A stretch of DNA of 64,000 bases from a virus (Duplodnaviria > Caudoviricetes). The notes below the pieces were generated by a model. That model saw only the letters and a program-made list of their open reading frames with translations. It had not been told where the DNA came from and did not search any database. Positions 6,170 to 60,159 of the stretch are shown one piece after another; the first letter of the stretch is position 1, and every line of letters starts with the position of its first letter. Made by a program: the position numbers and the translations under genes. The stretch spans positions 1,780 through 65,779 of the IMG/VR virus record IMGVR_UViG_3300033061_002769. One strand, 5' to 3'.

Positions 6170-7417
6170 TCAGAGGAACTCTTGACCGGCTTTCGCATCA
6201 TCGTGAAACATCTTCACCGTTTCCAGCGAGTATTCGGTCAGGTCCTTGCCGATGAGATCCAGCTTTTTCAATACATCGCTGGTCACGGTGATGATGTGAC
6301 ACCCAACACTCTCCGCGTGAAAGATGTTTAGCAATTCGCGCGGGCTGGCCCAGATCAACTCGCAGCCTGGAACCCCATTCACCATCTCGACCGCTTCCGC
6401 CATCAGAGGCACCGGATCGCGGCCGGTGTCGGCAATCCTGCCCGCGAAAACCGACACGTAGGACGGAACGCCCCCGGTGAGCGCCGCACAGACGTCCCGC
6501 ACCTGCTCCACTGTCAGGATTGCCGTGACGTTCAACTTCACTCCCTGCCGCGAAAGTTTCCGCGCCAAATCGCATGAACTCTCCCGCCGGGTGTTGGTCA
6601 CAGGTATCTTGACGTAAACGTTCGGTCCCCAGGCGGCGATCTCTTTCGCCTGCCGTTCCATTTCCGGGAAGTCATCGGCAAACACCTCAAAGGAAATGGG
6701 CCGGTCCGGTATCGCCCGCAAAATGTCTTTGGCGAAGCTCACGTAGTCCCGAACGCCGGCCTTCCGCATCAGAGTCGGATTGGTGGTGAATCCCCTGACG
6801 AGCGGATTACGGTACAGGTCCAGCATCGCCGCCTTGTCGGCGCCGTCAGCGAAAATTTTGATCTTGAGTTCAGTTACAGAAGGCACTTGACCAAGAATCC
6901 AATCTGCTGCTTCTTGAAGCGATGTGACTCTTATGTCTCCTGGGGGAGATGACTTTTGTTCATCATACCCATAATCAATGAAGACAGTACGGCACCCTGC
7001 ATGCCGCCCCGCTTCAATGTCACGCCACCGATCCCCGATCATGAAACTGTTCGCAAGATCAATGTCATGCCAACGGGCCGCGGCTAACAAGAGCCCGAAA
7101 AGTGGTTTGCGGCAATCGCAAAAATCCGAGTCATCATGACAACAGACTAATATATCGTCCAACAGCAGCACCCTCTTGAGCCGCTCGTGCATTGCGTCTA
7201 CGACTGAGCGGCTTTGTGTACCTCGCGCGACGTCCGGTTGATTGGTAACTACTACCAGCAGGTATCCTCTCCGCTTCAGCCGTTCCAGAACGCCAGCCGC
7301 CTCCGGAAAGATTTCCATCTCTTTGACCGAAGCTGGCGGATAGGGTTTGCCGCCGCGCACTACGACGCGGACCAGCACGCCGTCGCGGTCCAGGAAGACG
7401 GCTCGCTGTTTCACCAT
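6170..7417 (-). CDS. gmhB: Fusion of D,D-heptose-1,7-bisphosphate phosphatase (GmhB, HAD) and transaldolase
   Basis: N-terminal FLDRDG, VVTNQP, CDCRKP and MIGDRWRDIEAG; C-terminal GFTTNPTL, ISFEV, VYVKIP, NVTA, SVFAGRI and WASPRE; no stop at the linker ADWILGQVPSVTELK. Confidence 0.9.
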   Translation of the reverse strand: MVKQRAVFLDRDGVLVRVVVRGGKPYPPASVKEMEIFPEAAGVLERLKRRGYLLVVVTNQPDVARGTQSRSVVDAMHERLKRVLLLDDILVCCHDDSDFCDCRKPLFGLLLAAARWHDIDLANSFMIGDRWRDIEAGRHAGCRTVFIDYGYDEQKSSPPGDIRVTSLQEAADWILGQVPSVTELKIKIFADGADKAAMLDLYRNPLVRGFTTNPTLMRKAGVRDYVSFAKDILRAIPDRPISFEVFADDFPEMERQAKEIAAWGPNVYVKIPVTNTRRESSCDLARKLSRQGVKLNVTAILTVEQVRDVCAALTGGVPSYVSVFAGRIADTGRDPVPLMAEAVEMVNGVPGCELIWASPRELLNIFHAESVGCHIITVTSDVLKKLDLIGKDLTEYSLETVKMFHDDAKAGQEFL

Positions 7418-8007
7418 GCTGATTCCCATTTAGTCTCTGCCTGCTTGAGCTCAGGGTGAGAGACAAGCAAGTGCCAAACCACGGCCTGAAACGCCTCGGT
7501 GTGGGGCGTGACGCGTTGCGGATTCACCGTGGGAACAATGACGCAGGCACCGGCGACTTTCGCGGTGTAGCCGCCGTCTCTGCCGACGATGCCACCGATA
7601 CGCGCACCGACTCCCTTGGCGTAGTCGAGGGCATTCACAATATTGGTGCTGACGTTATGTTCACGGTTGCCGCCGCCCACCGAGAACACCAGAATCATGT
7701 CCTGGCGGCGAAGCCTGCTGGTCTTGAGCCAGGATTCGAAGATCCCGCCCCAACCCTCGTCGTTGGTTCTGGCCGTCAGCTCGGCGACGTTGTCCGTAGG
7801 CGTGTAAGCTTCCATGCCTGTAATCTTTCTGAAATCGTTGACCGCGTGTGAGGCGTTGGCCGCGCTGCCTCCCACCCCCAGCAGAAAGAGTCGTCCACCT
7901 TCCTCTCTGGTTTCCGCGAGCAGCTTGGTCAATTTCTCGATCTTGGCGGTGTCCAACCGCTCCAGCACCTGTTTTGCCTCGCTCAGAAACTGTTCGCTGA
8001 AGTTCAT
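7411..8007 (-). CDS. gmhA: Sedoheptulose-7-phosphate isomerase (SIS domain)
   Basis: GVGGSAANASHAVNDF, LTARTND, SVGGGN and PHTEAFQ; sits within the heptose cluster. Confidence 0.85.
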   Translation of the reverse strand: MNFSEQFLSEAKQVLERLDTAKIEKLTKLLAETREEGGRLFLLGVGGSAANASHAVNDFRKITGMEAYTPTDNVAELTARTNDEGWGGIFESWLKTSRLRRQDMILVFSVGGGNREHNVSTNIVNALDYAKGVGARIGGIVGRDGGYTAKVAGACVIVPTVNPQRVTPHTEAFQAVVWHLLVSHPELKQAETKWESAW

Positions 8008-23470: not shown

Positions 23471-24475
23471 CTACTGGATTACGCTCAAGAGCATGTAACC
23501 CAGGTACTTGCTGACGAGACCGAAGGTATAAGCCTGTTCGATCTCGACGTGGTCGGCAGCATCGATCTCCCAACGATACTTCTTGATCCGCATGCCGGCG
23601 GCCGTAGCGCCTGTCAGACCCGTCCAGTTGAAGGTATAACCCGCACTGGGCTGCATGATCCCCGGAGAATCCGCAGCATAGGCCAGCAAAGCATGCTTGC
23701 CCGAAATGAAGTCGAACGTATCGGGCGTGGTATCCGAGTCGGCTACCAGGTCCTCAGCCGAGGTTGTCTGGATACCCGACATCACCACAACACGCTTGAC
23801 CTTGAACAGCGCAGCGAGGTCCGTCGTGGTGACGACGACGGCGCCCGGAGCGGTTTGGCCGTACTTCAAACGGTCGATAATCTCGGGATTGGTAAGCAGT
23901 GTCACGAAGACCTGCGCGCCCAGTACCAAAATATTGGGCCACATTCCTGTAGCTTTCTTGATGGCCAGTTGTCCGGCCAGAACGTCCTCGATAGGCGTGG
24001 ACCCACTGAGGTTCCAGTACTTGACGTGGGTAGCATCGGCAGCTGCCTGGCCTGCCAGCTCCGTACCCCAAAGACCGGTAGCGAAGTAGGCGCTACCCCA
24101 GGCAACGTCACGGTTGACAAGAGCCTGTTGTGTCAACCAGAACGTAGCGTCACGGTCAGGTTGAAGGGGTGAATCGCTGTTGTCCCGGATCTGGTCATCG
24201 ATAATCTTCTTTTCGGCCCAGACGTCAGCAATGTACGTCTTGGTCGTCAGTTTGTAACCTCCAGCGGCAGCCGGGGTACCGGGTGCACGCTTTTGCATGT
24301 TGTTGCGGAAGAAGTCGCCGCGATTGTAGACGAAGTACACATCGCTTTTGTTGGTAACCGGGATAGGCGGAAACACAACATTGGCAACGAAGTCACTCTG
24401 GTCTTGCAAGTAGCCCACTGACAACATTGTCAGGGGCCTGTTAACGTGGACATCACCAAGGGTTGGAAGAGGCAT
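23471..24475 (-). CDS. Major capsid protein
   Basis: 334 aa, downstream of the scaffold and cement genes; HK97-fold (capsid E-like) appearance; strong RBS. Confidence 0.8.
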   Translation of the reverse strand: MPLPTLGDVHVNRPLTMLSVGYLQDQSDFVANVVFPPIPVTNKSDVYFVYNRGDFFRNNMQKRAPGTPAAAGGYKLTTKTYIADVWAEKKIIDDQIRDNSDSPLQPDRDATFWLTQQALVNRDVAWGSAYFATGLWGTELAGQAAADATHVKYWNLSGSTPIEDVLAGQLAIKKATGMWPNILVLGAQVFVTLLTNPEIIDRLKYGQTAPGAVVVTTTDLAALFKVKRVVVMSGIQTTSAEDLVADSDTTPDTFDFISGKHALLAYAADSPGIMQPSAGYTFNWTGLTGATAAGMRIKKYRWEIDAADHVEIEQAYTFGLVSKYLGYMLLSVIQ

Positions 24476-24529: not shown

Positions 24530-24895
24530 TTACATCTTCGATGCCTTGGGCTGATAGATGATATCGGCCAAGTAGGTGCTGACGCCGGCTGTAAGCGCAA
24601 TGCCTAGCACGTAGGCACCACTGGTAGCAGCAACGGCACAACCGCTGCCGTCGGTAGAAACATCATCGCCTGCGTTGAACGCGCCGCCACACTTCACTTT
24701 CGTGATGTCACCTGGATAACACACTGCTCCCGGATCGGCCGCTGCTGGCTTGTCCTGAATAACCCCAACGGCGTAGCCGCCGGCACTGGGGGTTGCGAGT
24801 TGGCCATTGGTATCGATCTTCACGAACGTGTACTGCTTTGACGCAAAGGTCGCCGTGGCCTTGATGGACTTGGTCTTCACGATTTCGTAGGCCAT
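24530..24895 (-). CDS. Capsid cement/decoration protein (DUF2190-like)
   Basis: 121 aa, Gly/Ala-rich (GVIQDKP, GDDVSTDGSGCAV); directly upstream of the capsid gene. Confidence 0.7.
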   Translation of the reverse strand: MAYEIVKTKSIKATATFASKQYTFVKIDTNGQLATPSAGGYAVGVIQDKPAAADPGAVCYPGDITKVKCGGAFNAGDDVSTDGSGCAVAATSGAYVLGIALTAGVSTYLADIIYQPKASKM

Positions 24896-25013: not shown

Positions 25014-26504
25014 CTACTGTTGGACTGCAAACTGCCGGTGCTGGCGTTCGTAATCCAAGTAGACCTCAGGGCATTCCTCCATAGCCTTAGCCGTAGCCTT
25101 GCCTTCGGAGATGTTATCGCGCTTGGCGATCTCATGGACTTTGGCTTCCCATGCCCGTTCGGCTGGGATCGTGCCTCCCGCCTTGCCTACTTCGCCGTAG
25201 TGGATAGCCAAAGCCTTGTCGGCTGCCTTCAGGTCAGCGAGCGTCTTCATGAAGTCGTCACTTTGCTCGCCGCCCAAAGCATCGGCAAGCTTCATCAATC
25301 GAGCGCCCTTTTCATCGGCCGTGCCGGCTGTATGGGGAAGCTCCTCCTCAGCCCGTTTTGCAAAATGCATCAGGCGCTCGCGCTTGCTGATCTCCGCCAG
25401 TTGCAGTTCGGCCTTGGCTACCCGATCCTCGGCAGATGCAACTTTGGCGACCAGAGCTTTGCGTGCTTTCTCTTTTTCCTGCTCTGCAGCTTCCTCTTCA
25501 GCCGTTTCGGCAGCCTCTTCGGCAGCGGAGCCCTCGTCGTCCTTGGCTTTCTGGCAGGCTGCCAGCATCGCCTTCCGCTTCTCCTCATCGGCCGCCATGA
25601 ACTCCTTCCGCTTCTCCATCGGCAGCGAAGCGTAGAGCTTGCGGTCTTTCTTAGACATCTTGAGAACGATGTCATTCTCCAGCTTCAGGGCGTCATTTTC
25701 GGCCTTGAAAACCGTCAGTTGAGCGTCCTGTTCCGTAACACGCTTTTCAATCTCATCTAGTGTCATTCCTGTTTCTCCTTTGTTAAGAACCTCGGGCAAC
25801 TCGTTGTCGCCCTTGTCTGGGTTTGCAGCACGCCAAGCGGCGCGTACTTTGACCTTGACGCCGGATAGCGCTTCGGTCGGAATCTGAACCTTCTTGCCTC
25901 GAAAACCTTTTCCAAGCGCAGCAATTGCTGCTCCCACGATGCCCGGGTCAGGCTTGCCTCCGGGGGTGGAGGTAAGACGAAGCTTCCAATGACTAGGAAC
26001 GTCATCAGGTGCGTAAGCAAAATCGCTTCTGGGAAAGCTCACTCCGTCTTGCATTTTGCCATCAACTGCCTTACAGATCAGATCATTTTCATCCCATTCA
26101 TCAGCAGCTTTCTTTGCCTGACCCGGAGTGATAGTACGAAAGCGTTCAAAACTATCAGGATCTTCTTGTCGGAATCGAAATGACTCACCTGTCTCGTCCA
26201 CTTCCAAACCTTTGAAGTCGTGATCAGATAGCCATTTCTTAGCTGAAGCAACAGTCCAGTTTCCCTTGTCGAAGATTACTGACTGGACCTTAGACCCGCC
26301 ACCGGACTTAGGAAAACCAAGGACGAACTTGACTCCGCTAACGCCCTTGCAAATCTCTGCAAACTCTTCGCCGGAGTCGCGCTTCCAGAGCGCGACCATT
26401 GCATGCCGGATCTTGCGCCCTGTCTTCGGATCAATTGAACTGTTGGCAGGGGTGTCACAAAGACTCACCTCATCCACAACAAGCGAATGCAACTCGGTAG
26501 CCAT
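25014..26504 (-). CDS. Head scaffolding protein (multi-domain)
   Basis: N-terminal EVSLCDTPAN motif typical of XkdF-type head modules; long Glu/Lys/Ala coiled coil; lies between protease and capsid genes. Confidence 0.7.
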   Translation of the reverse strand: MATELHSLVVDEVSLCDTPANSSIDPKTGRKIRHAMVALWKRDSGEEFAEICKGVSGVKFVLGFPKSGGGSKVQSVIFDKGNWTVASAKKWLSDHDFKGLEVDETGESFRFRQEDPDSFERFRTITPGQAKKAADEWDENDLICKAVDGKMQDGVSFPRSDFAYAPDDVPSHWKLRLTSTPGGKPDPGIVGAAIAALGKGFRGKKVQIPTEALSGVKVKVRAAWRAANPDKGDNELPEVLNKGETGMTLDEIEKRVTEQDAQLTVFKAENDALKLENDIVLKMSKKDRKLYASLPMEKRKEFMAADEEKRKAMLAACQKAKDDEGSAAEEAAETAEEEAAEQEKEKARKALVAKVASAEDRVAKAELQLAEISKRERLMHFAKRAEEELPHTAGTADEKGARLMKLADALGGEQSDDFMKTLADLKAADKALAIHYGEVGKAGGTIPAERAWEAKVHEIAKRDNISEGKATAKAMEECPEVYLDYERQHRQFAVQQ

Positions 26505-26534: not shown

Positions 26535-26789
26535 TTAATCCATGATTCTGGCGCGAAAATAGCTACCGGAATAATTAGCCGGAAGCGCGGCAAACCACTC
26601 CTCGGGTTTCTCTTTTGCTGTCACTTGCCGTTCCCCGCCGTCTATAACAACCGGGTTTGCCATGACATTATCCATAAGCCTCTCGTAGCCAGGCTCGGCT
26701 TTAGAGGTGATCTTAGCACCGTCTAAGAACACATGTCCGGCAATTGTCTGCTTGAATTCGCGGATCACGTACAACCCACAGGTTTTCAT
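26535..26789 (-). CDS. Hypothetical protein downstream of the kinase domain
   Basis: GGAG RBS then MKTCGLY; 84 aa. Confidence 0.55.
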   Translation of the reverse strand: MKTCGLYVIREFKQTIAGHVFLDGAKITSKAEPGYERLMDNVMANPVVIDGGERQVTAKEKPEEWFAALPANYSGSYFRARIMD

Positions 26790-26805: not shown

Positions 26806-28923
26806 TCAACGTTTATAACGACTAAGATCTCTCCATTCTGGTATCTTGGCCAATCGGTTAATGCGTTGTCCCACTCCAACGACAGCCCTCTCCGGCAAAC
26901 CAGCACTGCGAAGAGCATCTAAGATTGACTCGCGGGCTGCAATATACGGCTTTGCATAGGGGGCTACCGAAGGTGGAGGAAGATCAGATCCTGCGGCAAA
27001 TCTATGAGCCGCCTCATAAACAAACTCGTTATTGTACGTACCCTGGTAGTTGCCTTTATCTGGAAATGAAAGCCCATGGTCAATGAGGTGAAGCCTTCCC
27101 CCTGGCTCCACTAGCCAATTGCCCGCATGTCTGTCCTCATTCCCAATTACATAGTCAAAGACAGCTGCTCGGGCCAATCCTTCACGTCCATCATAAGTAT
27201 CTTCAGGAAACGAGCTCTTTATAGCTTCCTCACCGGGCATAAAGGCCATCATGGCCCCCCGTTCACCATCGACCTCTCGTATTGCAACCGGAGCAACCAT
27301 ATCATCCATCCCGACAATCTTGGCTACTTGCCAGGCGGCGAACTCACGCTCAGTTTCATACCCTGGCGTGATATTAGTGCGCAATGGTTCAAGCGAAGCG
27401 CCAGATTGAGGTTTAAAAACAGCTTTGTCTCCGTTTGCCAAAGTGACAAGCATGGTCTCATTCTCCCCGCCCCCAAGATCCTTCCTGCCGCTAATCCCTT
27501 GCGATAATAAATTCTTCTCTGCAACGCCCGGACCAGATGATCCGCCTGTGACTTCAGGAGACCCTTCCCCACCACCATCTCCGGACCATCTTCCCTGTTC
27601 ATCACGTGGCTGATCAAGATCATACTTCACCAAGTTCGCCTCTTCGATCTTTTGCCGTTTCCCGCGCCCACCAATACTGAAAGCCCGTAATTCACCAGTC
27701 TTGATCTTCTTCCAGGTTTCCGGGTCGTCCACACGGAATCCTCCAAACCATCCTACGCACTTCAGGTCCAGAGCGGCATCGATACCCTGATCGTGAAGAG
27801 ATTTGAGCATCACCTCCTGCTTCTCCTGTGTAAAGACAACAGACTCGACCAGACGCCCGATACCAACCACGTCATCATTCTTGTTGGTCTCGTGCATCTC
27901 GCCCGCTTTGCGGGCATGGAGAACAAATTCGTAGGCACTGGACTCCAACATTTCGGAGGAGATCACGTCGCCTTGGGCGTCGGTTATAGATTTGCCATCA
28001 ATAGCGACTATTGAGAACCATCCGAAGACAAGTTGCCGTTCAGGGTCCAGTTTGACAATAGCACCTTCAATCTCGAAGTCCCGTTCGTTCGTCTTCTCAA
28101 CAAAAGTTCCTGTCAGAGGATACTCCTTCCGCTCACCACCAATACATAACACGATTATGCTGAACGTAACCTGAACCGGGTCAATCCTCTGAACGGGCAG
28201 ATCGGCTTTAGGATCAATGTAGGCCAACGTAACATGCGATGTATAGCCAAAATTCTTACGAGGTTCAAACCCAGCAGACTCCAAAGCTTCTACCAGCTCA
28301 CAACGAAAGTCCTGAATCTTCGTTGATTCAAACGTAGCAATCGCAACATCTTTGTTGTCCGAATGCTCAGTAGCGTTGAATCGCCCCGGACCTCCCAGTT
28401 CACCTGAAACCGGAGCGTGACTAGACGCAAAGTTCTGGATAGCAGTTTCAAGAGCGGGAAGCATTGCCGCATCTACTTCTTCCTGCTTCCCCAAATATGC
28501 CAGTGTCAGATGAAGATCCCCAAAAGACTCACCGTCTTCCAAAGCGAGTTTGGCAGCCGTCTCGGAATCAGGAAAGAAGGCAATCATGATACCGCTACCG
28601 GCCTTCTCGATATCGATCCAGTCGGCTTTCTCGACATCCTCTTCATCTGCCGTCCCATCGGTGATAATGACAAATTCCTGATCCTTAGCAAGATCTACGA
28701 ATGCATTGCAAACCGAAGCAACATCCGATTCGCTCTTACTGGCAAGGACACGCATTTCAGTAATAGCCTTTTCGACATCTTCAGTATATCCGCGCTGAAC
28801 AAGTGAGACGAGCGTCGGGTACTTCTTGCCATCCTTGTTGACCACGGCAATCAAGTCCGAGTATCCAGAACTTGAGGCAAACTGTCCAAGCGCCTCAGTC
28901 ACATTTGCGATTTCCAGACCCAT
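26806..28923 (-). CDS. Polyprotein: N-terminal domain + 2H phosphoesterase + XkdF-like prohead protease + PI3/PI4K/HipA-like kinase
   Basis: 2H motifs LHLTLAY and SHVTLAY; protease-like QLVFGW, DAQGD, GEMH and AFSIGG; kinase AVFKP, REFAAW, DRHAGN and IDHG. Confidence 0.8.
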   Translation of the reverse strand: MGLEIANVTEALGQFASSSGYSDLIAVVNKDGKKYPTLVSLVQRGYTEDVEKAITEMRVLASKSESDVASVCNAFVDLAKDQEFVIITDGTADEEDVEKADWIDIEKAGSGIMIAFFPDSETAAKLALEDGESFGDLHLTLAYLGKQEEVDAAMLPALETAIQNFASSHAPVSGELGGPGRFNATEHSDNKDVAIATFESTKIQDFRCELVEALESAGFEPRKNFGYTSHVTLAYIDPKADLPVQRIDPVQVTFSIIVLCIGGERKEYPLTGTFVEKTNERDFEIEGAIVKLDPERQLVFGWFSIVAIDGKSITDAQGDVISSEMLESSAYEFVLHARKAGEMHETNKNDDVVGIGRLVESVVFTQEKQEVMLKSLHDQGIDAALDLKCVGWFGGFRVDDPETWKKIKTGELRAFSIGGRGKRQKIEEANLVKYDLDQPRDEQGRWSGDGGGEGSPEVTGGSSGPGVAEKNLLSQGISGRKDLGGGENETMLVTLANGDKAVFKPQSGASLEPLRTNITPGYETEREFAAWQVAKIVGMDDMVAPVAIREVDGERGAMMAFMPGEEAIKSSFPEDTYDGREGLARAAVFDYVIGNEDRHAGNWLVEPGGRLHLIDHGLSFPDKGNYQGTYNNEFVYEAAHRFAAGSDLPPPSVAPYAKPYIAARESILDALRSAGLPERAVVGVGQRINRLAKIPEWRDLSRYKR

Positions 28924-28926
28924 ACA

Positions 28927-31290
28927 CTACCTTCCTCTCACCATCTCACGCAGAGTAGGCAAGGTCACCAAAGTCATCGACCGAACCCGAAATGAGCCAA
29001 CTCCCTTAGAGACATAATACTTCGTACCTCCGGCACGCTTGTCAGCTACTACAGTAAACATCTTGATTCGGCTGCGAACAGACTCCCCCACCTTACGGTC
29101 CATGGCAACCTTGCTCATGGTAATCTTCCCGTTCCTACTATCTACCATAGTTTTCAATTCGACCCCGACTTTGTCGTTGCGCAAATCGAATGCTGAGTTA
29201 TCACCGGTCCTAGGAATACCCAATGCACGACTGATAATCCGCTCCTGCTCATCTGCAATCCGCTGCTTGTCGGCTCCGCAAGGTTTTCGAGAGTCCAAGG
29301 CCCTCTGCGCTCGCTCGGATAGTTTAGGAAGTATAGCAACTGTACCTGCGACTCGCGGGTTGCCCCGGATCACTTCGCCTTTGTCGTTGACCATCACATG
29401 CTGACCGTTGATTGTGACCCATTCACCCTCCTCGTCATCCCCGGCCTTCTCGACTTGGTCGCGCTCAATCTTCTTCAGCACTCGTCCAGCCCAAAGAGCG
29501 GCCCGCGATCCACCCCAGGCATTGCGCCAAATGTCGGGCGTGTCGGTTGCTGTATCTTCAGTGGCAAAATAGGCAGCGATCTTTCGGACCTCGACTTCGG
29601 CAATGCCCTCGCCCTTGGAAAGCGGCTCGGTGATGCCGTTAATGGAAGTCCCAGCTTCCTGTGCCGTCTTGCAGGCACGGTTGACTTCAATGGGAGGTAA
29701 ATAGAGCGTAAGAGTATGATCTTCAGCTTTCTCCAAATCCTCGTTGCCCTTGTCGGTATCATCGTCAGTCAGACTGTGTAGAATGAGATAGACACCCGGT
29801 TTCAGTTCATCATCGTCAGTCACATCAATCTCTTTGATTTTGCCATTGTGCCAACGAAGCATGTCGGCATGTTCAGGGTCGTTGGGTTTGAGCAAATCCT
29901 TGATGTCTAACTTGTAATCCTCGGGACAGTCAGCATCGACCCAACTCTTAAGCAACTCCATGCCACGTGAATGCATTACAACGCCGATCTTCATGTTGGG
30001 ATGAATTTCGGAGTCTGTGTAGACATCCAGCAGATAATCCAACTGCCGGATTTTGGCATTCTCAAATGGTTCACCCGGTTTCCCATCGTTGCCTTTCCCG
30101 GGGGGTACTTCCTCGGGATGTTCTATGTAATGTTCAATCAAGCTTCCTACATCGCTCGATTCCCGACCTTCCATCTCGCCCAGACGCCACGGTCGAAGAG
30201 CATCGGCAGGTTCAGCACGTTCCATTTCCGGGTTGTGTTTAGCAATAGCGTCTGCTGTTTCAATAGCACGCGGCAACGGGGAACTGTGCAACACATCCAA
30301 TCCACCTTTAAGAGCGATCCGTTGGCCCAACTTGTCGGCCAGCACGCGTCCCTTGGAGTTGAGCGAGATAGAAGAATTACCACTGATGCGTTTAGCAATC
30401 TCTTCAAGTTGCCCTTCACGTTTTAGATATTCCCCAGAATGCAAAGCGGCGCGGCCGCGTTCTCCATAACGAGTTGAATCCGATCTTTCAGACTCTTGAT
30501 AGTCGCCATTTATAATCCAGCCACCACCTACAATACGTTCCGCTGGAATACCTTTGTCTCGCGCCATGCGAACATGGGTAATGCCCGCAAAATCCTTCTG
30601 CCAGTAAAGCGATCCGTCATCCGTCCGGATTGCAGAGAATTGCCCCTTATCAGGAGGAACGGGATCTGGTTTTGGAAGCGCTCGTGGAGAAAGTTTATCA
30701 GTATCTCCTCCCCCATCACCAGCAGTCCACTTCCCGCTTTCATCTCGAGGTTGGTTCTCGGAGTACTTCTTGATCTCTGCTACAATTGCCTCATAGTCGC
30801 TCATGTCGAGAACCGGTTTCTTGATCAGCAACTCTGTAATCTTCTCCGTAATGACATGCAACGGTTCGTCTTCTTTAATCTCCTCACGGGCCGTCTCCAA
30901 CAATCGAATAAACAACGGCACGTCCAGCGTGATCTTATCCTGTTTGGAGATCAACGGCAAAGCCAATACACCTACGTTAGGTGGAGCTACATCCTGCGTA
31001 CCCGGATCGTCCTTTCTTTTGTCTGATCCAAGAGGACGGTTGACATGAACATCACCTACTGTAAGAGCGTCCTTATGAATCCAAACCTTCTTCTCCGAGT
31101 TCCACAAATAGCCTGCATCTTCCAGCACGCGGTACGCCTTAATATAGGCGTGCATCTCCGTCCGCCCGTCACTGACATGAGAATTAAACGCCGCGCGAAA
31201 GAGCGTCTGAGCAACATCGTCGGGTAGCGCCGCGCGGACTGCCTCAGGAAGATCACCATTCGCGGAGTAGTGAATGACGCGGAGTTTCAT
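28927..31290 (-). CDS. Polyvalent head protein: ChaB-like + histidine-phosphatase-like + further domains + C-terminal PD-(D/E)xK-like domain
   Basis: LPEAVRAALP..AQTLFRAAFNS (ChaB-like); SSPLPRAIETA, LGEMEG and VMHS (His-phosphatase-like, no clear RHG); AFDL...VELKT. Confidence 0.65.
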   Translation of the reverse strand: MKLRVIHYSANGDLPEAVRAALPDDVAQTLFRAAFNSHVSDGRTEMHAYIKAYRVLEDAGYLWNSEKKVWIHKDALTVGDVHVNRPLGSDKRKDDPGTQDVAPPNVGVLALPLISKQDKITLDVPLFIRLLETAREEIKEDEPLHVITEKITELLIKKPVLDMSDYEAIVAEIKKYSENQPRDESGKWTAGDGGGDTDKLSPRALPKPDPVPPDKGQFSAIRTDDGSLYWQKDFAGITHVRMARDKGIPAERIVGGGWIINGDYQESERSDSTRYGERGRAALHSGEYLKREGQLEEIAKRISGNSSISLNSKGRVLADKLGQRIALKGGLDVLHSSPLPRAIETADAIAKHNPEMERAEPADALRPWRLGEMEGRESSDVGSLIEHYIEHPEEVPPGKGNDGKPGEPFENAKIRQLDYLLDVYTDSEIHPNMKIGVVMHSRGMELLKSWVDADCPEDYKLDIKDLLKPNDPEHADMLRWHNGKIKEIDVTDDDELKPGVYLILHSLTDDDTDKGNEDLEKAEDHTLTLYLPPIEVNRACKTAQEAGTSINGITEPLSKGEGIAEVEVRKIAAYFATEDTATDTPDIWRNAWGGSRAALWAGRVLKKIERDQVEKAGDDEEGEWVTINGQHVMVNDKGEVIRGNPRVAGTVAILPKLSERAQRALDSRKPCGADKQRIADEQERIISRALGIPRTGDNSAFDLRNDKVGVELKTMVDSRNGKITMSKVAMDRKVGESVRSRIKMFTVVADKRAGGTKYYVSKGVGSFRVRSMTLVTLPTLREMVRGR

Positions 31291-32294
31291 TATGCCGCTA
31301 CCTCTTTCAAACTATCAGCATCGATTGCCGTAGTACATCGGCAAGAAGGATGCGGATCAGGTGGCTCCATGATTCCCGGTGCAAATTCCTCATCCATACC
31401 TGCCGTTTCCTCATCCAGACCCGCGCACTCAGAACAGGTCCGATCATCCATCGAAGCTATCCACCGCCGCCGTGCTGTATGCGGAAGCAATCCTTGTTGC
31501 CGGGCCTGCCGCCAAAGCTCGCGTTGTCCTTTATTTGCGGCTCTTATGCTCTCGGTCCTAGCAATGTTTCGCGCTCGATACTGTAAATACCGTTCCCGAT
31601 ACCGTTGCACCAGTTTGTCGATGTAGTTCTTATCAAGGCTCTGTCCCGTGTTAAGCGCCCGAAGGAGAGTTGGGTCGAAACGACCGTCGCGCAAGGAACG
31701 GGACAGAGCATTGCGCAGCGCCGAGCCCCCCGACTCCAGCGCCTTACGATAATTGGTTACGGCTTGTTCCATACGAGCCGTCAACCCGATTATGCCTTTG
31801 ATCTCGCGTGCCTGTTCATAAGGATGACCCCCTTCACGAAAGGCCCTCAGGATAACCTGCTGAACTGCTTCACGCTGACTCTGGGTAACCTGTTGAATCA
31901 AATTGAATGTGTAGGATTGCAAAAAGTTCACCGATTCGGGATTCAACAAATCGAACGAGAGATTCACACTCACTTTAGCGGGCAGACGCATCATTGCTAC
32001 CTTGGCTCCAGCTGCGTAGGCCATCTGAATGGCATCACGCACGCTCTGGATGTTGGCCTCCAGACCTTTGCCTTGGAGAGCCCCGGTCAGCCGCTCGTCC
32101 AATGCCAGAATCGCCATGACTTGATTGACGTCTCCGCTTTCCAATGCTGCACTCAACTTGTTCAAAGCGATCTGACTTTTTACAGCTTCGATCGCCGCCA
32201 GGTAGGCGTTGCGAATCTTCGGTTCCATTGACGCTGCTGCTAGCAGCAACGGATCGTCGGAGGAGAGCATCACTTTGAGAATAGTTATGGGCAT
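31290..32294 (-). CDS. MuF (Mu gpF/SPP1 gp7-like) head morphogenesis protein
   Basis: IARTE...RRWIASMDDRTCSEC...HPSCRC; immediately after the portal gene. Confidence 0.9.
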   Translation of the reverse strand: MPITILKVMLSSDDPLLLAAASMEPKIRNAYLAAIEAVKSQIALNKLSAALESGDVNQVMAILALDERLTGALQGKGLEANIQSVRDAIQMAYAAGAKVAMMRLPAKVSVNLSFDLLNPESVNFLQSYTFNLIQQVTQSQREAVQQVILRAFREGGHPYEQAREIKGIIGLTARMEQAVTNYRKALESGGSALRNALSRSLRDGRFDPTLLRALNTGQSLDKNYIDKLVQRYRERYLQYRARNIARTESIRAANKGQRELWRQARQQGLLPHTARRRWIASMDDRTCSECAGLDEETAGMDEEFAPGIMEPPDPHPSCRCTTAIDADSLKEVAA

Positions 32295-32296
32295 AA

Positions 32297-33772
32297 CTAC
32301 ACTGCTGTCTCCAAACGATCTCCCGCTTCCTGTTGGTTTGTCGGACTACTCGCCGTAGGCTTCTTCCCCGTCGGTCGTGTAGCGGCTCCGGGTTGTTGTG
32401 GCACAGGCGGTTGTTTCGATCCTGCCTCGGCATCTTCCGGTTCCTCGGGCAGACGTCCGACTTTTCTGACGTAGTTTGCTGTCTCGCGATCAAAAAATGT
32501 CATGCCCGACGCTGATAGTTTGCTGATGAAGTCCGCCAGCTCCTCCAAATCCCGGACACCGATCTCACCCGCAACCAGCTTTGGGGCATCCGTGATATCC
32601 ATCGCGTTCAGAGACAAAAGGCGTGGGATAGCAATCCGATTGATCACAGCTGCAACCGAATCCATGAACGCTCCAATAGCCAATGAGAAGATCTGTGTAG
32701 CACTCATATGCAAGGCCCGACTGCCCGTAGGTGTCTGCCCGAACTGCACAAAGCCCGCCAAAACGGTATTGAGCATGTCGGCGTTGTAGCGTTGAATCGC
32801 CGCTCCGGGGTCCGTCTGTTTAGCCCCGGCTGTTCGCAACAGTTCCAACTTGACATGCGGGTTGCCCTTCTCATCGTAAGCTTGTGGGAGAACAATACCA
32901 GCCTGATCATCGATACGGATGTCACGAACCAGTTTACGGGCAGCATCGGCCCCAGTCAACCCGTTCATGTTCATCTGGGCCAACGCTTCGGCGCTCATGT
33001 AAAGAACCGGAATGCCGCAAAGATCGCGTTCGATTCCGATTCCCTCGATCTCTTCCAGGCGGCGCTTGAAGACCCACGAACGGTAGCAGTTGCGCAACAG
33101 GCTTCTGCCTTCAGGATTATTTTTCAGGTTGGTTGTACGGAACAACAACAGCTTTTCAATTGGAATAGGAACCGTCCGATAGTCAGGAGCAGCCAACTGC
33201 ACAGCGCCCTGAAGGCCACCCTCATCGTCCCAGATCCAGTAAAGAATCGACTCCTGGGCACGAGGAGCAATCTTGCGCCATCCGATAAGTCCATCATCGT
33301 ATTTTGATGCCTTGCGGCCATCAGGTCCCTGTCGTCGTTTGTAAACCGTCTCGAACAGAGCAAAGCCAAAGGCAAACATACTAACACATTCGGAAACGAA
33401 ATCTTCCCAGGTATGGCTCATGTCCTCCATACATTCGGTAACGAACTGAGCCAGCTTCTCACCCTGCTTTGTCTTGGCCGGTTCCACCCGCCACTCGGCA
33501 CGCCGAAGGATCATTTCAAGAGCAAAAAACATCGATCCGATGACCGCATCATTATCGCGCATCTCACGGTAGATTTGTTTAGCACGAGCAGTGGAAAGAT
33601 CACGAAGCCACTCTTCAAAAATGTACCCAGTTCCTTTTGTACGCAGCAAACCCGAAACACCAAACTCTGCCATTGGCGTTGGCTTAGGGAGATCCTTTGG
33701 AATAGTTCCCGGTATCACAGCAATCTCTTGTCGCGGTGAAACTACTTTTGCAATTTTATCTATCAAAGCCAT
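32297..33772 (-). CDS. Portal protein (Mu gp29/DUF935-like)
   Basis: 491 aa between TerL and MuF; NPEGRSLLR and GIERDLCGIP. Confidence 0.85.
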   Translation of the reverse strand: MALIDKIAKVVSPRQEIAVIPGTIPKDLPKPTPMAEFGVSGLLRTKGTGYIFEEWLRDLSTARAKQIYREMRDNDAVIGSMFFALEMILRRAEWRVEPAKTKQGEKLAQFVTECMEDMSHTWEDFVSECVSMFAFGFALFETVYKRRQGPDGRKASKYDDGLIGWRKIAPRAQESILYWIWDDEGGLQGAVQLAAPDYRTVPIPIEKLLLFRTTNLKNNPEGRSLLRNCYRSWVFKRRLEEIEGIGIERDLCGIPVLYMSAEALAQMNMNGLTGADAARKLVRDIRIDDQAGIVLPQAYDEKGNPHVKLELLRTAGAKQTDPGAAIQRYNADMLNTVLAGFVQFGQTPTGSRALHMSATQIFSLAIGAFMDSVAAVINRIAIPRLLSLNAMDITDAPKLVAGEIGVRDLEELADFISKLSASGMTFFDRETANYVRKVGRLPEEPEDAEAGSKQPPVPQQPGAATRPTGKKPTASSPTNQQEAGDRLETAV

Positions 33773-33783
33773 TTGACCTTCTT

Positions 33784-34650
33784 TTACGAACTACATTTTC
33801 GCATCATACCTTCTCGGGTCTTCACTGAAATCATTTGGCGGTGTACTGGGTCCGTCATTTGCTTCTTTGTACATTGAGAAAGATGCGCTCGTACTTTTGG
33901 GTCCGCCATCTTTTTCTTCATCCATTTGGAATGCTGAGCGCACTGCTGTTTGTAAGTCGGGTCGTTAATAGCCTTTTCCAACATCGTCTTTCGGATCGTA
34001 GCTGCAACACGAGCCTTGAACTCAGGATTGGCCCAACGACGTTTTGCATTTTCTGACATCTTTGCCCGGAATGCAGGATCTTGTTTCACCTTCTTCAAGG
34101 TACGGCTAACCCGCGCCTTGAATTTTGGATCGCTCCATCTTTTCTTAGCTCTTTCAGAACGGCGCGCCCGCTCTTTTGGATCTGCTCCAATATGAAGTGC
34201 TCTTTCCGAAATTTTTGCGCGGTGCTCGGGATCACAATCAGCCTTGCGCATTCCCTCAATTACCTTTTTGCGAAACTTGGAATTGCTCCAATTCCGTTTT
34301 GTCGTATATGATAACCTCTTACAAGACCGTTTGCAAAGATTTCGTATTCCATCCCCACCATCCGTTGAATTAGTAAGGTTGCAACCCCGCCTCCGCAACT
34401 TATATATCCATTGCATCTCAGCGGTCGCAGGGTCGCTCACATCAACCTGAAGAATTACTAGTTGGGGTTCCAATCCCTTCCGTAATAGCAATTGAATCCA
34501 ACAAATCTTGTGAGTTCGATGTTCTCCAGTAAAATTCTTTGCTTCTTTGATATGTCCTCGGTAGCGGTGCACAGGATTCTTTGAATACCCCACATAACGA
34601 ATTACTCCATCACGCGGGTCAGTCAAAGCATAAACCGAAGCAGTGTTCAT
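33784..34650 (-). CDS. Free-standing GIY-YIG homing endonuclease with basic repeats
   Basis: VYALTDP...RYVG, LTN..DGGDG; repeated K/R-rich WSDPxF units (NUMOD3-like). Confidence 0.8.
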   Translation of the reverse strand: MNTASVYALTDPRDGVIRYVGYSKNPVHRYRGHIKEAKNFTGEHRTHKICWIQLLLRKGLEPQLVILQVDVSDPATAEMQWIYKLRRRGCNLTNSTDGGDGIRNLCKRSCKRLSYTTKRNWSNSKFRKKVIEGMRKADCDPEHRAKISERALHIGADPKERARRSERAKKRWSDPKFKARVSRTLKKVKQDPAFRAKMSENAKRRWANPEFKARVAATIRKTMLEKAINDPTYKQQCAQHSKWMKKKMADPKVRAHLSQCTKKQMTDPVHRQMISVKTREGMMRKCSS

Positions 34651-34944: not shown

Positions 34945-36438
34945 TCAATACTCCCGAGCTTCGTTACTCGTTCTCCAAGGACTTTCGCGTATCTCCGAAA
35001 TGACCGAAAACAACTGAGGGGTCTCCCCGCGAACCTTCTCGACAAATGCCAACATGCAAGCCTCAGCCCGATCCGGCGACTTGACGCCCCGTTTACGCAT
35101 CTCGTCTTTACCCTCAATGACAACCTGACCACGAGCATTGTGCGAATATCGAATCGCTGCTAACTGCCCGATCATTTTGTCGTCATCAATACCGCGCAGA
35201 TCGCCAACCTGAGCCCGAAGCCGCAGTCCCCAATAATACTCAGCCTTGGCATTCGCAAACTTTTCTTTATTACGCGGTTCGGAACCTACGTTCACCGCGT
35301 GGACTACTTTGGCACCAAAAATATCACGTAGGTAGGTAAACATATTCCAACCTACACCGATGCTGTCCACATTCAGTCGCGCTAGATTCTCTTTGAAGGG
35401 AGCTAAAGCTGCCACAACACTACCACGCGGATCGGGCTGAGGCCATGCTTTCGTGAGAACAATGCAAGGCCCATCTCGAATTACCAGGACCGTCTCAGCC
35501 TCGCCGGGACCGGCTACATCAAGACCTGCACAGTAGATGCTAACGCCTGCTGTTTCCTTCATGCCTTCCCGAACACGAGCACGCTCCAACCATGAGAGCG
35601 GAATTAGCGTATCATCACTCTCCGTCGGAAACTCTCCTAAAACCTTGTATTGAAAAAAAGGATGTAGTGGACCCCATTCCTGGAATGTCTCCTTAACCCA
35701 ACGTCGTCCGCAAAGATAAGGACGTGTATTCTTGTCCAACTCAGACTCATCCAACTCCATCAAGTCCTGCCCATGGCCAACAACAACATTGGCACCGGTC
35801 TCATCCTGAAATGTAAGTGATACCCGTTGAAGATTAGGTGTATCAAAAGCGCTGATCGTATAAGTACTCCAATTCGCCCGGTTAACTGTAAAAGCATCAT
35901 GGAATGGTCCACCGATAATCGCCGGGTTTCCTATAGCCAGCAACCTTGCATCGCCACTAGCCATAAGTCCCTGAATCGCAGACCAGATCTCATTCCGAAC
36001 ACCGGGAGCTTCATCGATAATGATCAAGATTCTCCCACTGCGAAACCCCTGAAAGCGCTCCGTCTCGTTCGTGCTCAAGCCAATCGCGTAGTTTTTCTCA
36101 CTCAGCTTAATCTCCTTTTCCAAAATATGAGGATACTTAACACGCCCCATTCGCGCGCTCTTCTGCGCGGCGTCGCGGATCTCGCCCCAGAGTACAGTCT
36201 TTACCTGAAAGTTTGTAGGCGCTGTAGTAATAGCTATTGCGTCCGGATAAGTTGTAACCCACCAGAGTACCGCTGCCGCGCTGATAAAAGTCTTTCCTGA
36301 AGCATGACACGACTTCACAGCCGTTCGTCGGTTGTTAGCAATACTTTCTAGAATCGTAGCCTGCATATGCCAAATGGAATGCCCCAACACACCCCGAGCA
36401 AATCCTACCGGCGTTCCGAGACTTTTGGCATCCAGCAT
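34945..36438 (-). CDS. terL: Terminase large subunit
   Basis: Walker A-like SCHASGKT, Walker B IIIDEA and RNase H-like GLDVA. Confidence 0.9.
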   Translation of the reverse strand: MLDAKSLGTPVGFARGVLGHSIWHMQATILESIANNRRTAVKSCHASGKTFISAAAVLWWVTTYPDAIAITTAPTNFQVKTVLWGEIRDAAQKSARMGRVKYPHILEKEIKLSEKNYAIGLSTNETERFQGFRSGRILIIIDEAPGVRNEIWSAIQGLMASGDARLLAIGNPAIIGGPFHDAFTVNRANWSTYTISAFDTPNLQRVSLTFQDETGANVVVGHGQDLMELDESELDKNTRPYLCGRRWVKETFQEWGPLHPFFQYKVLGEFPTESDDTLIPLSWLERARVREGMKETAGVSIYCAGLDVAGPGEAETVLVIRDGPCIVLTKAWPQPDPRGSVVAALAPFKENLARLNVDSIGVGWNMFTYLRDIFGAKVVHAVNVGSEPRNKEKFANAKAEYYWGLRLRAQVGDLRGIDDDKMIGQLAAIRYSHNARGQVVIEGKDEMRKRGVKSPDRAEACMLAFVEKVRGETPQLFSVISEIRESPWRTSNEAREY

Positions 36439-50718: not shown

Positions 50719-51388
50719 GAGTTGTCTCCAAGAGCGATTCCAAAGATTGAAATGGCCAACACTTCAATCCAGACTCCGGTGTAGCATTGATCACCTCAAC
50801 TCCAATTTTAGCCAGCGGCTCTACCAGTGAATCAAAACAGGGCAGCATTGAATCGCGAATGACACTCTCGAATCCATCAGGGCGTATCTCATCATGCCAA
50901 TGCGTACGGCCATTAATAGCGCGCATGTCCACGCCCAAAAGCACAATCCGCCGAACGTCGTAATGCACAGCCAGATTCATCGCCTGATAAGTACTGTTCG
51001 ACCCATGACGCAGTCCCAACGGGGCCGTCTCCAATCCAAGCTGCCCAGTCAGCCGCAAATAATGAACTTGCGGATGGCCCTGAAAAGCTGGGCTGCTCGT
51101 CACCCAGAAGCCCCGATAAATCATTTCGTGGAAGCATACGGGTGAAGCCGGAACCGTACTTATTGAACGAAGGTTCTTGGCCATCTGATACTGCCACCAA
51201 TGCTCATCACAGAAATAGAAGACCGATGCCCAGGGTGCCAACCGCCAACTGTCATTAATAGTAATCACCCGTCCATGACCCCGAAGAACATCAGCATCGA
51301 ATCCTCGCAATGACGGGCCGCCGGCAAGGATAAAGCAGGTTTCATCAGGCCATGATTTAGGTACTGACCAAAGCATCTCTTTCCTCAC
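50711..51388 (-). CDS. DUF115/MptE-like putative glycosyltransferase
   Basis: ILAGGPSL, ITIN, GSNSTYQAMN and IVLLGVDM; paralog of 22476-23048. Confidence 0.6.
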   Translation of the reverse strand: MRKEMLWSVPKSWPDETCFILAGGPSLRGFDADVLRGHGRVITINDSWRLAPWASVFYFCDEHWWQYQMAKNLRSISTVPASPVCFHEMIYRGFWVTSSPAFQGHPQVHYLRLTGQLGLETAPLGLRHGSNSTYQAMNLAVHYDVRRIVLLGVDMRAINGRTHWHDEIRPDGFESVIRDSMLPCFDSLVEPLAKIGVEVINATPESGLKCWPFQSLESLLETTRV

Positions 51389-58203: not shown

Positions 58204-60159
58204 TCACGTATGGGTAATCCAAGAATTGTCGGGGCTGAAAAACAGTGCGTCAGCCGTAAGCGCCTGACCGATAATACGAATGACAACATCGGTCGTAGTC
58301 GGCTGTATGCTCGTAACGTTACCGGCTGTTTCTGAAACGTATACAGGGGCACCTATTGTCATCGTCGGGAATCGAGCATCCGCCCGCACCTCGCCCCACA
58401 GTAGCATCTTAGTGGCTGATCCGTCTCCCGCCGCCGCCAACACACAGATACCAAGCAGATTGCGAGAGTCACCAGCACCTGCCGCCGCCGCATTGGCATC
58501 TGTCAATTCCCATCGGGAGTCGGCGGTTTGCAAATAACACAGATCGCCAAACACCAATGTAGCTCCGGCTGTTCCTGAGATCACAATCCCGGAGTATTTC
58601 CCGTCGGCTGATAGAGATGAATCCAGCGCTAGGCCCGTGTTCTCGCCGAGATCGAGTTCGGCAGCGAGAGGATTGGCGGAGGACGTTCCACTAGTACCCC
58701 CAGTCCCTCCAGTACCTGCTGTCCCAGAGGTCCCGCTCGTTGAACTAATTCCTGAAGTACCGCTTGTTCCAGTAGTACCCGAACTGCCCGATACGCCCGT
58801 AGTTCCACTTGAGGCACCCGTTGTACCTGATGTCCCCGAAGTTCCAGATACCCCCGATGTGCCACTTGTTCTTGACGCGCCCCCAGTGCCTGACGTACCG
58901 CTACTCGCGCCTGTTGTACCCGAAGTCCCCGCTGTCCCCGAAGTTCCAGATACCCCTGTTGTGCCGCTCGAAGAGGCACTAGTGCCGGATGTACCGGCAG
59001 TACCTGAGGTGCCCGTTGTCCCACTTGAAGATGCCGAGGTCCCGCTGGTCCCCGCCGTCCCACTCGTCCCCGATATACCCGTGGTACCGCTACTCGCTCC
59101 AGTCGTGCCAGAAGTGCCAGCGGTTCCTGAAGTCCCTGAAACACCAGACGTACCACTAGATGCTCCCGTAGTCCCCGAGGTTCCTGCCGTCCCCGAAGTC
59201 CCCGTAGTTCCGCTCGACGCTCCAGTTGTCCCTGATGTTCCCGAAGTACCTGACACACCTGTTGTGCCACTGGAGGCTGCCGATGTGCCCGAGGTACCCG
59301 CAGTTCCGCTGGTCCCACTTGTGCCTGAACTTCCACTTGACCCGGCAATCGAAATACCGGACGTTCCCGACGTGCCCGTAGTACCGCTGGAAGCCCCAGT
59401 AGTGCCAGAAGTTCCGGCAGTCCCGGAGGTTCCTGTTGTCCCACTGGAAGCTCCGGTTGTTCCCGACGTGCCTGCCGTTCCCGACGAACCAGGCACACCG
59501 GGTGCTCCAGAAGCACCACTCACCCCCGAAGTTCCACCTGTCCCGCTTGTCCCCGAGCTTCCACTAGAGCCGGAGATAGATGTACCTGATGTACCCGAGG
59601 TTCCTGTCGTACCGCTGGAAGCCCCCGTAGTTCCGGAAGTGCCGGCCGTGCCTGAGGTACCACTGCTGCCCGACACACCTGATGTACCACTAGAAGAAGC
59701 TGAGGTGCCTGAGGTTCCGCTCGTTCCAGACGCGCCTCCGGTCCCGCTAGTTCCTGAACTTCCGCTGGAGCCGGCAATAGATGTTCCAGACGTTCCCGAT
59801 GTGCCAGTAGTACCACTGCTCGCTCCAGTTGTGCCCGAAGTGCCGGCTGTACCTGAAGTTCCCGATGCACCCGTGGTTCCGCTACTTGCACCTGTTGTAC
59901 CAGATGTCCCGCTAGTTCCCGATATACCAGATGTCCCACTTGAGGCACCAGTTGTGCCTGAGGTCCCGGCTGTGCCTGAGGTCCCAGCTGTTGAAGAAAT
60001 ACCTGAGGTCCCCGCAGTACCACTACTCCCAGGAATAGTAAGCCCACTGGTTCCAGATGAGCCGGAAACACCAGAACTTCCCGAAACGCCCTGCGGCCCA
60101 GCAACGCCTAGTTCAAGAATCACTACCGGCGACTCGTCTATTTCAATTGTCATTGGCAT
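58204..60159 (-). CDS. Collagen-like Gly-X-Y Ser/Thr-rich fibre with a globular C-terminal domain
   Basis: GPQG start, then ~470 aa of [16 protein letters not shown] units; C-terminal ~155-aa beta domain ([20 protein letters not shown]). Confidence 0.85.

Follow-up and report, generated by a model that had tools for sequence, protein, structure and literature searches.

A prohead protease fused to a 2H phosphoesterase and an atypical kinase as a candidate carrier of capsid cargo in a tailed phage

We analysed a 64,000-nucleotide stretch of a tailed phage (Duplodnaviria; Caudoviricetes), referred to here as the window, which covers bases 1780-65779 of the 65.8-kb IMG/VR record IMGVR_UViG_3300033061_002769; all positions are in window numbering. 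The gene P0001, located in the head module of this window, encodes a polyprotein of 705 amino acids (aa) that joins a leader, a 2H phosphoesterase, an XkdF-type prohead protease, a linker with a short peptide (the header) and an atypical kinase. The domains, their intact catalytic residues, the head-module position of the gene, the predicted disordered and conserved joints between the domains and the shuffling of modules among relatives were all shown by the analysis. On this basis we consider P0001, with a probability of about 0.6, to be a capsid-maturation protease enlarged into a cargo carrier, which would be loaded into the capsid, cut itself and have its enzymes injected.

Domain composition and position of the polyprotein gene

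The minus-strand reading frame of P0001 is open across all 705 aa. A Pfam scan, listed to E = 1, returned three domain matches, all exceeding the curated cut-offs: 2_5_RNA_ligase2 (PF13563; aa 136-242, E 8.8e-10, 39.3 bits against a cut-off of 27), Peptidase_S78_2/XkdF (PF14550; aa 289-423, E 1e-15, 58.3 bits against 24, and 61.9 bits in another run) and PI3_PI4_kinase (PF00454; aa 581-625, E 7.9e-11, 42.8 bits against 27.1). In PHROGs, the pair of 2H and XkdF domains constitutes a single family, phrog_14859 (aligned aa 109-427, E 1.4e-27). Two plus-strand open reading frames (ORFs) inside the gene (27127-27507 and 28417-28806) were set aside, because homology backs the minus-strand frame along its whole length.

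A preliminary description, made from the sequence alone, had read two HxT motifs, an XkdF-like protease core, a kinase with intact K/E/DRHxxN/DHG and lysine motifs in the linkers, and all of these were recovered. The HxT motifs are LHLTLAY (aa 137-143) and SHVTLAY (aa 229-235), in agreement with PF13563; H138-L-T140 and H230-V-T232 have the form that defines the 2H superfamily, and H138, T140 and H230 are nearly invariant among relatives. The protease core, matched by PF14550, contains GEMH (aa 341-344) and FSIGG (aa 415-419), with S416 invariant and H344 nearly invariant among aligned relatives. The kinase, matched by PF00454, retains AVFKP (aa 501-505), NEDRHAGNW (aa 595-603) and LIDHGLSF (aa 613-620). 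Its catalytic residues (K504, E527, D597-R-H-x-x-N602 and D615-H-G) are those of the PF00454 family and are invariant or nearly invariant in 42 family sequences. Thus three catalytic domains share one chain in a head module and the architectures of relatives vary, as in the effector-bearing polyvalent proteins of phages discussed below.

An AlphaFold2 model was built for aa 1-471, and the kinase was modelled separately. The first model contains three confident domains, namely the leader (aa 1-92), the 2H domain (aa 109-275) and the protease (aa 286-417), separated or followed by stretches with a predicted local distance difference test (pLDDT) score below 50 (aa 93-108, 276-285, 418-436 and 448-471). 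The leader, N1, was mapped N-terminally in 19 of the 30 closest homologues (P0002-P0031). It has no Pfam family, its fold matches are weak (YfbM, Z 6.3; CdiI, Z 5.4) and the Atlas search gave no lead.

The genes of the head module lie on the same strand in the order portal, MuF, ChaB/His-phosphatase protein, P0001, 84-aa gene, scaffold, cement-like protein and major capsid protein, and this order is kept in a 113-kb contig and a 10.6-kb contig carrying relatives. Since none of the other head-module genes matched a protease, P0001 occupies the capsid-maturation protease's place and probably fills that role. The 20 kb around the polyprotein gene gave zero nucleotide matches to isolated phages.

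Lysine joints and module shuffling

The four lysine motifs (DVEKAD, aa 96-101; DIEKAG, aa 104-109; FVEKTN, aa 274-279; LVKYD, aa 431-435) all lie in or directly beside AlphaFold2-disordered segments between folded domains. A fifth copy, DVEKAI (aa 49-54), sits within a leader-domain helix and probably does not act as a joint. At joint 1, the 23 relatives that could be aligned over aa 1-471 all carry Lys107 at P1 (23/23) and V, I or M at P3 (23/23), with any residue at P2; P1' is A, S or G in 20/23 and P2' is Gly in 21/23. Of 19 aligned relatives, 12 have [VI]-x-K at joint 2; at joint 3, each of the five relatives with a kinase has [VIL]-x-K with Tyr or Ala next. The low-pLDDT linkers, the conservation of [VI]-x-K and the invariance of K107 together bear out the treatment of these motifs as conserved joints. 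Across the 30 close homologues, 40 of 52 [VIL]EK triplets fell outside the mapped module cores, where length alone would predict 34% (binomial p = 2e-10); linker composition may explain part of this excess.

The modules of P0001 and its upstream neighbour were mapped onto 92 homologues. Several relatives (P0011, P0013 and P0017) carry the leader, ChaB, HisPhos, 2H and XkdF modules as one chain, P0003 and P0018 are leader-XkdF-kinase proteins with no 2H domain, and many others consist of leader, 2H and XkdF alone (~430 aa) and stop only a few residues past the catalytic Ser. Fusion, splitting and swapping of modules occur at the Lys joints, which fits a protease-carried polyprotein cut into separate enzymes. 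A match to W-I-D-[IV]-E-K-A in distant DUF2213-2H proteins was set aside as a likely artefact of word-based candidate selection.

Table 1. Features of the polyprotein gene and its head module, in window coordinates
Feature	Position	Strand	Details
Polyprotein gene P0001	26806..28923	-	705 aa; leader, 2H, XkdF protease, linker/header, kinase
Leader domain N1, aa 1-92	28648..28923	-	Folded alpha/beta; pLDDT ~90
Linker 1, aa 93-108	28600..28647	-	DVEKAD and DIEKAG; [VI]-x-K107 then A-G; pLDDT < 50
2H phosphoesterase, aa 109-275	28099..28599	-	HxT motifs at 28495-28515 and 28219-28239; PF13563
Linker 2, aa 274-285	28069..28104	-	FVEK277; pLDDT < 50 at 276-285
XkdF-type prohead protease core, aa 286-422	27658..28068	-	His344 in GEMH (27892-27903), Ser416 in FSIGG (27667-27681)
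Linker 3, aa 423-480	27484..27657	-	L-V-K433 then header peptide; low pLDDT
Header peptide after joint 3	27568-27633	-	Y-D-L-D-Q-P-R-D-E-Q-G-R-W-S-G-D-G-G-G
Atypical kinase, aa 481-705	26809..27483	-	Lys504, Glu527, DRHxxN (27115-27141), DHG (27064-27087); PF00454
84-aa gene directly after kinase	26535..26789	-	No Pfam match
496-aa scaffold protein	25014..26504	-	N-terminal strand D-E-V-S-L-C-D-T-P-A-N (26442-26477), globular part, E/K/A-rich C-terminal half
Cement-like protein	24530-24895	-	
Major capsid protein	23471..24475	-	phrog_1005, E 4e-69
787-aa candidate cargo protein	28927..31290	-	ChaB, capsid N-terminus mimic, header, His-phosphatase-like module, joints; Pfam, motifs
MuF-like minor head protein	31290-32294	-	
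Mu-type portal	32297-33772	-	Starts head module with MuF

Protease core and scaffold strand

The protease domain has the His-then-Ser pair on an assemblin-like fold (varicella-zoster virus protease, Z 4.7), as do the HK97/S78-type and T4 gp21 proteases. Its comparison with T4 gp21 (5jbl) gave Z 8.3 across 106 residues; the alignment stops just past gp21 residue 146, and the catalytic serine of gp21 presumably lies near position 140. Among 80 viral XkdF loci, 32 ORFs were scored, and all 32 end 12-16 residues past the catalytic Ser of FSIGG. In 17 of these 32, a downstream ORF with E-[VI]-S-L-V-D-x-P-A was located 88 to 4,206 nt away. A close look at the three most compact loci showed that the strand ORF has its own ATG, lies in another frame and starts ~10 residues before the strand. 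Loci L008, L039 and L044 show the scaffold-gene strand E-[VI]-S-L-V-D-x-P-A-N.

We compared 46 non-redundant scaffolds of XkdF phages and found the E-V-S strand to be by far their best-conserved part, in which E12, S14 and A20 never vary and V16, D17 and N21 hardly do. Single-chain S78 proteases fused to 2H domains carry L-Y-E-V-S-P-V-L-H-G-A ~28 residues after the catalytic Ser, a spacing equal to that summed across the two genes of XkdF phages; this was seen with a looser pattern, the strict E-V-S pattern having missed S78 proteases. In S78 proteases the strand (E-V-S-x-V-x-x-G-A) follows the Ser in the same chain, whereas in XkdF phages it opens a separate scaffold gene, and in the P0001 phage the kinase and the 84-aa gene intervene between protease and strand. 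These patterns suggest that XkdF proteases may be naturally split between two genes, and the scaffold N-terminus would complete or dock the protease, recruiting it and its fused parts into the procapsid. A functional tie between protease and scaffold is likewise found in HK97/S78-type proteases, T4 gp21 and the lambda C/Nu3 protease-scaffold fusions.

The long E/K/A-rich C-terminal half of the scaffold is read, by composition alone, as a putative coiled coil. At its border with the globular part (scaffold aa 247-254) stands M-T-L-D-E-I-E-K (25743-25766, minus strand), and [LIV]-x-K is kept at this border in 34 of the 46 scaffolds. The motif may be a cleavage site of the cargo-joint type.

The 2H phosphoesterase domain

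The fold of the 2H domain was compared with known structures. The closest was the Deinococcus radiodurans cyclic phosphodiesterase, CPDase (drCPDase; Z 18.1, root-mean-square deviation 2.8, 160 residues aligned), followed by LigT-type enzymes (Z ~16), Acb1 (Z 10.7) and the penguinpox cyclic GMP-AMP (cGAMP) phosphodiesterase (Z 9.6). Foldseek gave the same order, with 1iuh, 5h7e and 5ldm as best matches and Acb1 at rank 30. The Acb1 model, PF23474, was absent from the Pfam list of P0001 to E = 1 and had no match at E <= 0.001 in the whole record, in a run in which it also matched no control genome. Acb1-family identity was rejected on both counts.

The preliminary description had likened the domain to Acb1 and proposed an action against CBASS (cyclic-oligonucleotide-based antiphage signalling) and type III CRISPR. 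The family membership falls with the results above (Z 16-18 for LigT/CPDase enzymes versus 10.7 for Acb1), and an anti-CBASS role becomes one option among others because the domain is nearest to LigT/CPDase enzymes. Enzymes with LigT-like folds vary in substrate between lineages, some viral ones cleaving 2'-5' oligoadenylate and others cGAMP (PMC11410667), so the substrate cannot be read from the fold. The chemistry is most likely hydrolysis of 2',3'-cyclic phosphate or of 2'-5' linkages, which would allow either breakdown of nucleotide defence signals or action on cleaved RNA ends. An anti-signalling role is possible from the modelled fold, with no specific indication for it, and a role on RNA ends is equally open.

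The kinase, the header peptide and the 84-aa gene

The kinase model (pLDDT 92.9) matched human PI4KII-alpha best (4hnd; TMq 0.72, E 5e-8). A phosphoinositide substrate should not be assumed, because the next-best matches are the Fam20 protein and sugar kinases. A search of 1.84 billion representative proteins returned 2,918 relatives of the kinase at E <= 1e-3, in which the domain is usually C-terminal and the proteins range from 200 to >3,000 aa. Actinobacterial genomes hold relatives in three or four tandem copies (L090, L091 [Nocardia] and L092 [Micromonospora]), and the gene upstream of P0002 ends in a second kinase (L101, 3-338).

The header peptide was present in 37 of the 147 best new kinase-family representatives. 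In stand-alone kinases it lies ~20-35 residues from the N-terminus, and in long chains it is repeated up to four times; it is typically preceded by [VIL]-x-K and recurs as KYxxDQPRDxxGRW on cargo modules. A literature search for the motif found no paper mentioning it.

Directly after the kinase lies a small gene, which we read as 84 aa from the ATG at 26787-26789 in preference to a 127-aa ORF overlapping the 3' end of P0001; a G-rich stretch before this ATG, judged by eye, is a possible ribosome-binding site. Homologues with 38-43% identity directly follow the kinase in L099 (9626-9829) and L101 (2719-2976), and L100 ends after 26 residues that resemble the 84-aa protein by eye. None was found in 80 kinase-less XkdF loci. 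The link between gene and kinase is suggestive only, because the kinase-bearing contigs are related to each other. The 84-aa protein may be a partner or an inhibitor of the kinase.

The upstream protein and the capsid N-terminal peptide

The 787-aa protein encoded upstream of P0001 contains two [VL]EKA joints (aa 519 and 613) and a second copy of the header peptide (30706-30768), and in relatives its modules are fused with 2H-XkdF in one protein. Immediately after its ChaB domain lies L-T-V-G-D-V-H-V-N-R-P-L-G (31027-31065, minus strand), a mimic of the N-terminus of the major capsid protein, P-L-P-T-L-G-D-V-H-V-N-R-P-L-T (24428-24472, minus strand). Apart from these two, the window has no close copy of this peptide and one loose pattern match. 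The capsid N-terminal peptide is conserved in ~50 XkdF loci (L003, L007, L011, L063, L070 and others), and the mimic was present in 13/13 ChaB-bearing homologues. The peptide may be a capsid-addressing or protease-recognition peptide.

The His_Phos_1-like module of the same protein has, at aa ~300-310, K-R-I-S-G-N-S where R-H-G is expected, in 11/11 members (this phage and 10 relatives), and keeps the later H-S-R-G motif. The module may be a phosphatase that is inactive or altered. The C-terminal part (28927-29430, minus strand; aa ~620-787) has a Q-V-E-K-A-G joint followed by G-E-W-V-T-I-N-G-Q-H-V-M-V, and P0003 has a similar W-V-T-I-D-D-N-P-V-L-I after its joint. F-D-L-R-...-V-E-L-K in this C-terminal module resembles a putative PD-(D/E)xK nuclease motif.

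Proposed mechanism

We infer loading, cleavage and ejection, as well as every substrate, along the following route. The XkdF core would take the chain into the assembling procapsid, probably by pairing with the scaffold strand E-V-S-L-x-D-x-P-A-N. Inside, the protease would cut the disordered joints after Lys ([V/I/L]-x-K) at K107, K277 and K433. This would set free the leader, a 2H phosphodiesterase of LigT-like type and a PI4K-II-like kinase whose new N-terminus would retain the Y-x-x-D-Q-P-R-D-x-x-G-R-W header. The folded enzymes would be too large to exit the shell, would stay with the DNA and would enter the next host at injection, acting before phage gene expression. By analogy with the T4 internal proteins and Alt, capsid loading and self-processing of P0001 are plausible.

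The idea that the protease carries these domains into the procapsid and releases them had been put forward in the preliminary description. It is favoured by the domain reading, the gene position, the conserved joints and the shuffling at these joints, and it loses its Acb1 component. Several points count against it. Pfam terms the proteolytic activity of XkdF 'putative', the major capsid protein is without a [VILF]EK site, joint 2 is without Lys in 7 of 19 aligned relatives, and the record is only ~52% complete according to CheckV. In addition, K107 always precedes the first 2H strand, so its invariance could reflect a role internal to the 2H domain and not cleavage. A literature search found no experimental cleavage site for the XkdF family, and a search for PF14550 returned nothing.

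A more elaborate proposal, which we regard as tentative and rather doubtful, is a four-signal XkdF capsid-loading system made up of a split protease, [V/I]-x-K joints, a cargo header and a capsid-peptide address, with the 84-aa protein as a check on the kinase. Here the scaffold N-terminus would supply the last protease strand, with its invariant Glu and Ser, so that recruitment, and perhaps activation, would occur only inside the procapsid. The [V/I]-x-K joints would mark the cut points of the cargo, and Y-x-x-D-Q-P-R-D-x-x-G-R-W would mark cargo modules across many phage lineages. Cargo that has no protease, such as the upstream ChaB protein, would be addressed by a copy of the capsid N-terminal peptide P-T-x-G-D-V-H-V-x-x-P-L, and the 84-aa neighbour would restrain the kinase until it is packaged.

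Alternative explanations

The 2H domain and the kinase might instead act in the producing cell, late in infection or on capsid and scaffold proteins (for example by phosphorylation), with the protease fusion serving only to couple expression or location and the packaged material being degraded or inert. The place of P0001 in a late structural operon would suit such a role, as would the Fam20 kinases, which phosphorylate proteins and sugars, being the nearest folds after PI4KII; a conserved 84-aa partner would also be sensible if the kinase needs control in that cell. However, domains that are folded and attached to a prohead protease would be unable to leave the shell. Proteins with the same kinase and 2H modules also include portal, MuF and other head components as well as very long multi-enzyme chains, a distribution like that of injected effectors (PMC5512222), and we consider action confined to the producing cell unlikely. 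It is improbable that the chain is injected uncut, that is, packaged and ejected as the 705-aa protein, whole or minus the leader, with the Lys linkers as docking or flexibility elements. Some plasmid polyvalent proteins are transferred at full length (PMC5512222), and K107 may belong functionally to the 2H domain. Yet a protease is part of the chain itself, relatives have natural gene boundaries and fusion points where the joints lie, and stand-alone kinases bear a short pre-sequence ending in x-K-Y ahead of the header.

A further alternative concerns the function of the enzymes and is compatible with delivery by a self-cutting carrier. The 2H domain could open 2',3'-cyclic phosphates, the His-phosphatase-like module could dephosphorylate and the kinase could phosphorylate 5'-OH ends, forming an RNA end-healing set that repairs tRNA cut by host anticodon nucleases. 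In favour of such a set, the 2H domain is structurally closest to CPDase/LigT enzymes (Z 16-18), and both in this phage and in its relatives it is linked to a phosphatase-like module and a kinase. We nevertheless judge it quite unlikely: R-I-S-G-N-S replaces the catalytic R-H-G of the phosphatase-like module in 11/11 members, and the kinase resembles PI4KII and Fam20 enzymes, not P-loop polynucleotide kinases. Head-linked 2H domains are without ligase association according to Iyer et al. (PMC5512222). Neither an RNA ligase nor RtcB was found in the record, which is weak evidence at its ~52% completeness.

Comparison with known systems and significance

The general concept of polyvalent, head-associated effectors is already published (Iyer et al. 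2017, PMC5512222). In the polyvalent proteins of phages, 2H domains are fused to MuF or portal proteins and were proposed to degrade nucleotide defence signals, the kinases were proposed to be T7-kinase-like, processing peptidases are built in and delivery with the DNA was predicted (PMC5512222). P0001 likewise combines several unrelated enzyme domains in one chain among virion genes, including a 2H domain, a kinase and a peptidase, and its relatives also carry 2H domains on MuF and portal proteins. In contrast to that work, which does not mention XkdF, the carrier here is the prohead protease itself. The kinase of P0001 is PI4KII-like with a helical C-lobe and may or may not fall in the 'truncated' kinase clade of that paper, which describes neither [VI]-x-K joints nor a header peptide nor the docking of a scaffold strand. 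Particular to P0001 are the protease as carrier, the PI4KII-like kinase appended after the protease and the conserved small gene following the kinase.

T4 provides the experimental precedent: its internal proteins IPI-III and Alt enter the core, undergo trimming by gp21 and reach the host by injection, where IPI acts against a host nuclease and Alt alters the RNA polymerase (PMC9958956). P0001 resembles this system in its putative non-structural cargo, its protease of assemblin fold and its short joint motifs, which, like the T4 motif, have a hydrophobic residue two positions ahead of the (here predicted) cut. T4 cargo is separate from the protease and carries an N-terminal tag, whereas the cargo of P0001 is covalently fused and the conserved residue at the joint is Lys. 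The gp21 cut of T4 follows Glu in L/I-x-E. With [VI]-x-K joints and fused, untagged cargo, P0001 is an analogue and not a member of the T4-type capsid-targeting system. Acb1 (T4 57B; phage FBB1 Acb1, PDB 7t26/7t27; PF23474) is also a phage 2H fold with two HxT/S motifs; it is a free protein, with no fusion to a head protein described in the literature searched, whereas the 2H domain of P0001 is fused.

Actinobacteriophages of Arthrobacter, Gordonia and Microbacterium have 2H-XkdF genes of phrog_14859 with the same core in the same head-module position, and tblastn showed 21-26% identity over aa 104-435. Unlike P0001, these phages gave no detectable kinase or N1 leader. The annotation of these genes is inconsistent, 'RNA ligase' in some and 'capsid maturation protease' in others, and the actinophage genomics papers searched were silent on the function of the 2H-protease fusion. 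Because the 2H-XkdF core occurs in many isolated actinobacteriophages, work in cultured systems is feasible and the inconsistent annotation could be corrected.

If P0001 is indeed loaded and cut, ready-made enzymes would arrive with DNA entry, ahead of host signalling defences. The protease fusion, the [VI]-x-K joints, the header and the docking scaffold strand would then be rules by which cargo can be recognised in metagenomes, and phage capsids could be loaded with foreign proteins by a natural route in laboratory strains.

Other genes in the window

A GIY-YIG homing-endonuclease-like gene (33784-34650, minus strand) lies between the portal gene and a 497-aa ORF with no family match (34945-36438). 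Elsewhere on the minus strand, the window encodes a 1,639-aa protein in which an FkbM methyltransferase is joined to several glycosyltransferase domains (51357-56276), a collagen-repeat protein (58204-60159) and a HAD-hydrolase/transaldolase fusion (6170-7429). These three genes suggest extensive glycan-related functions in this phage.

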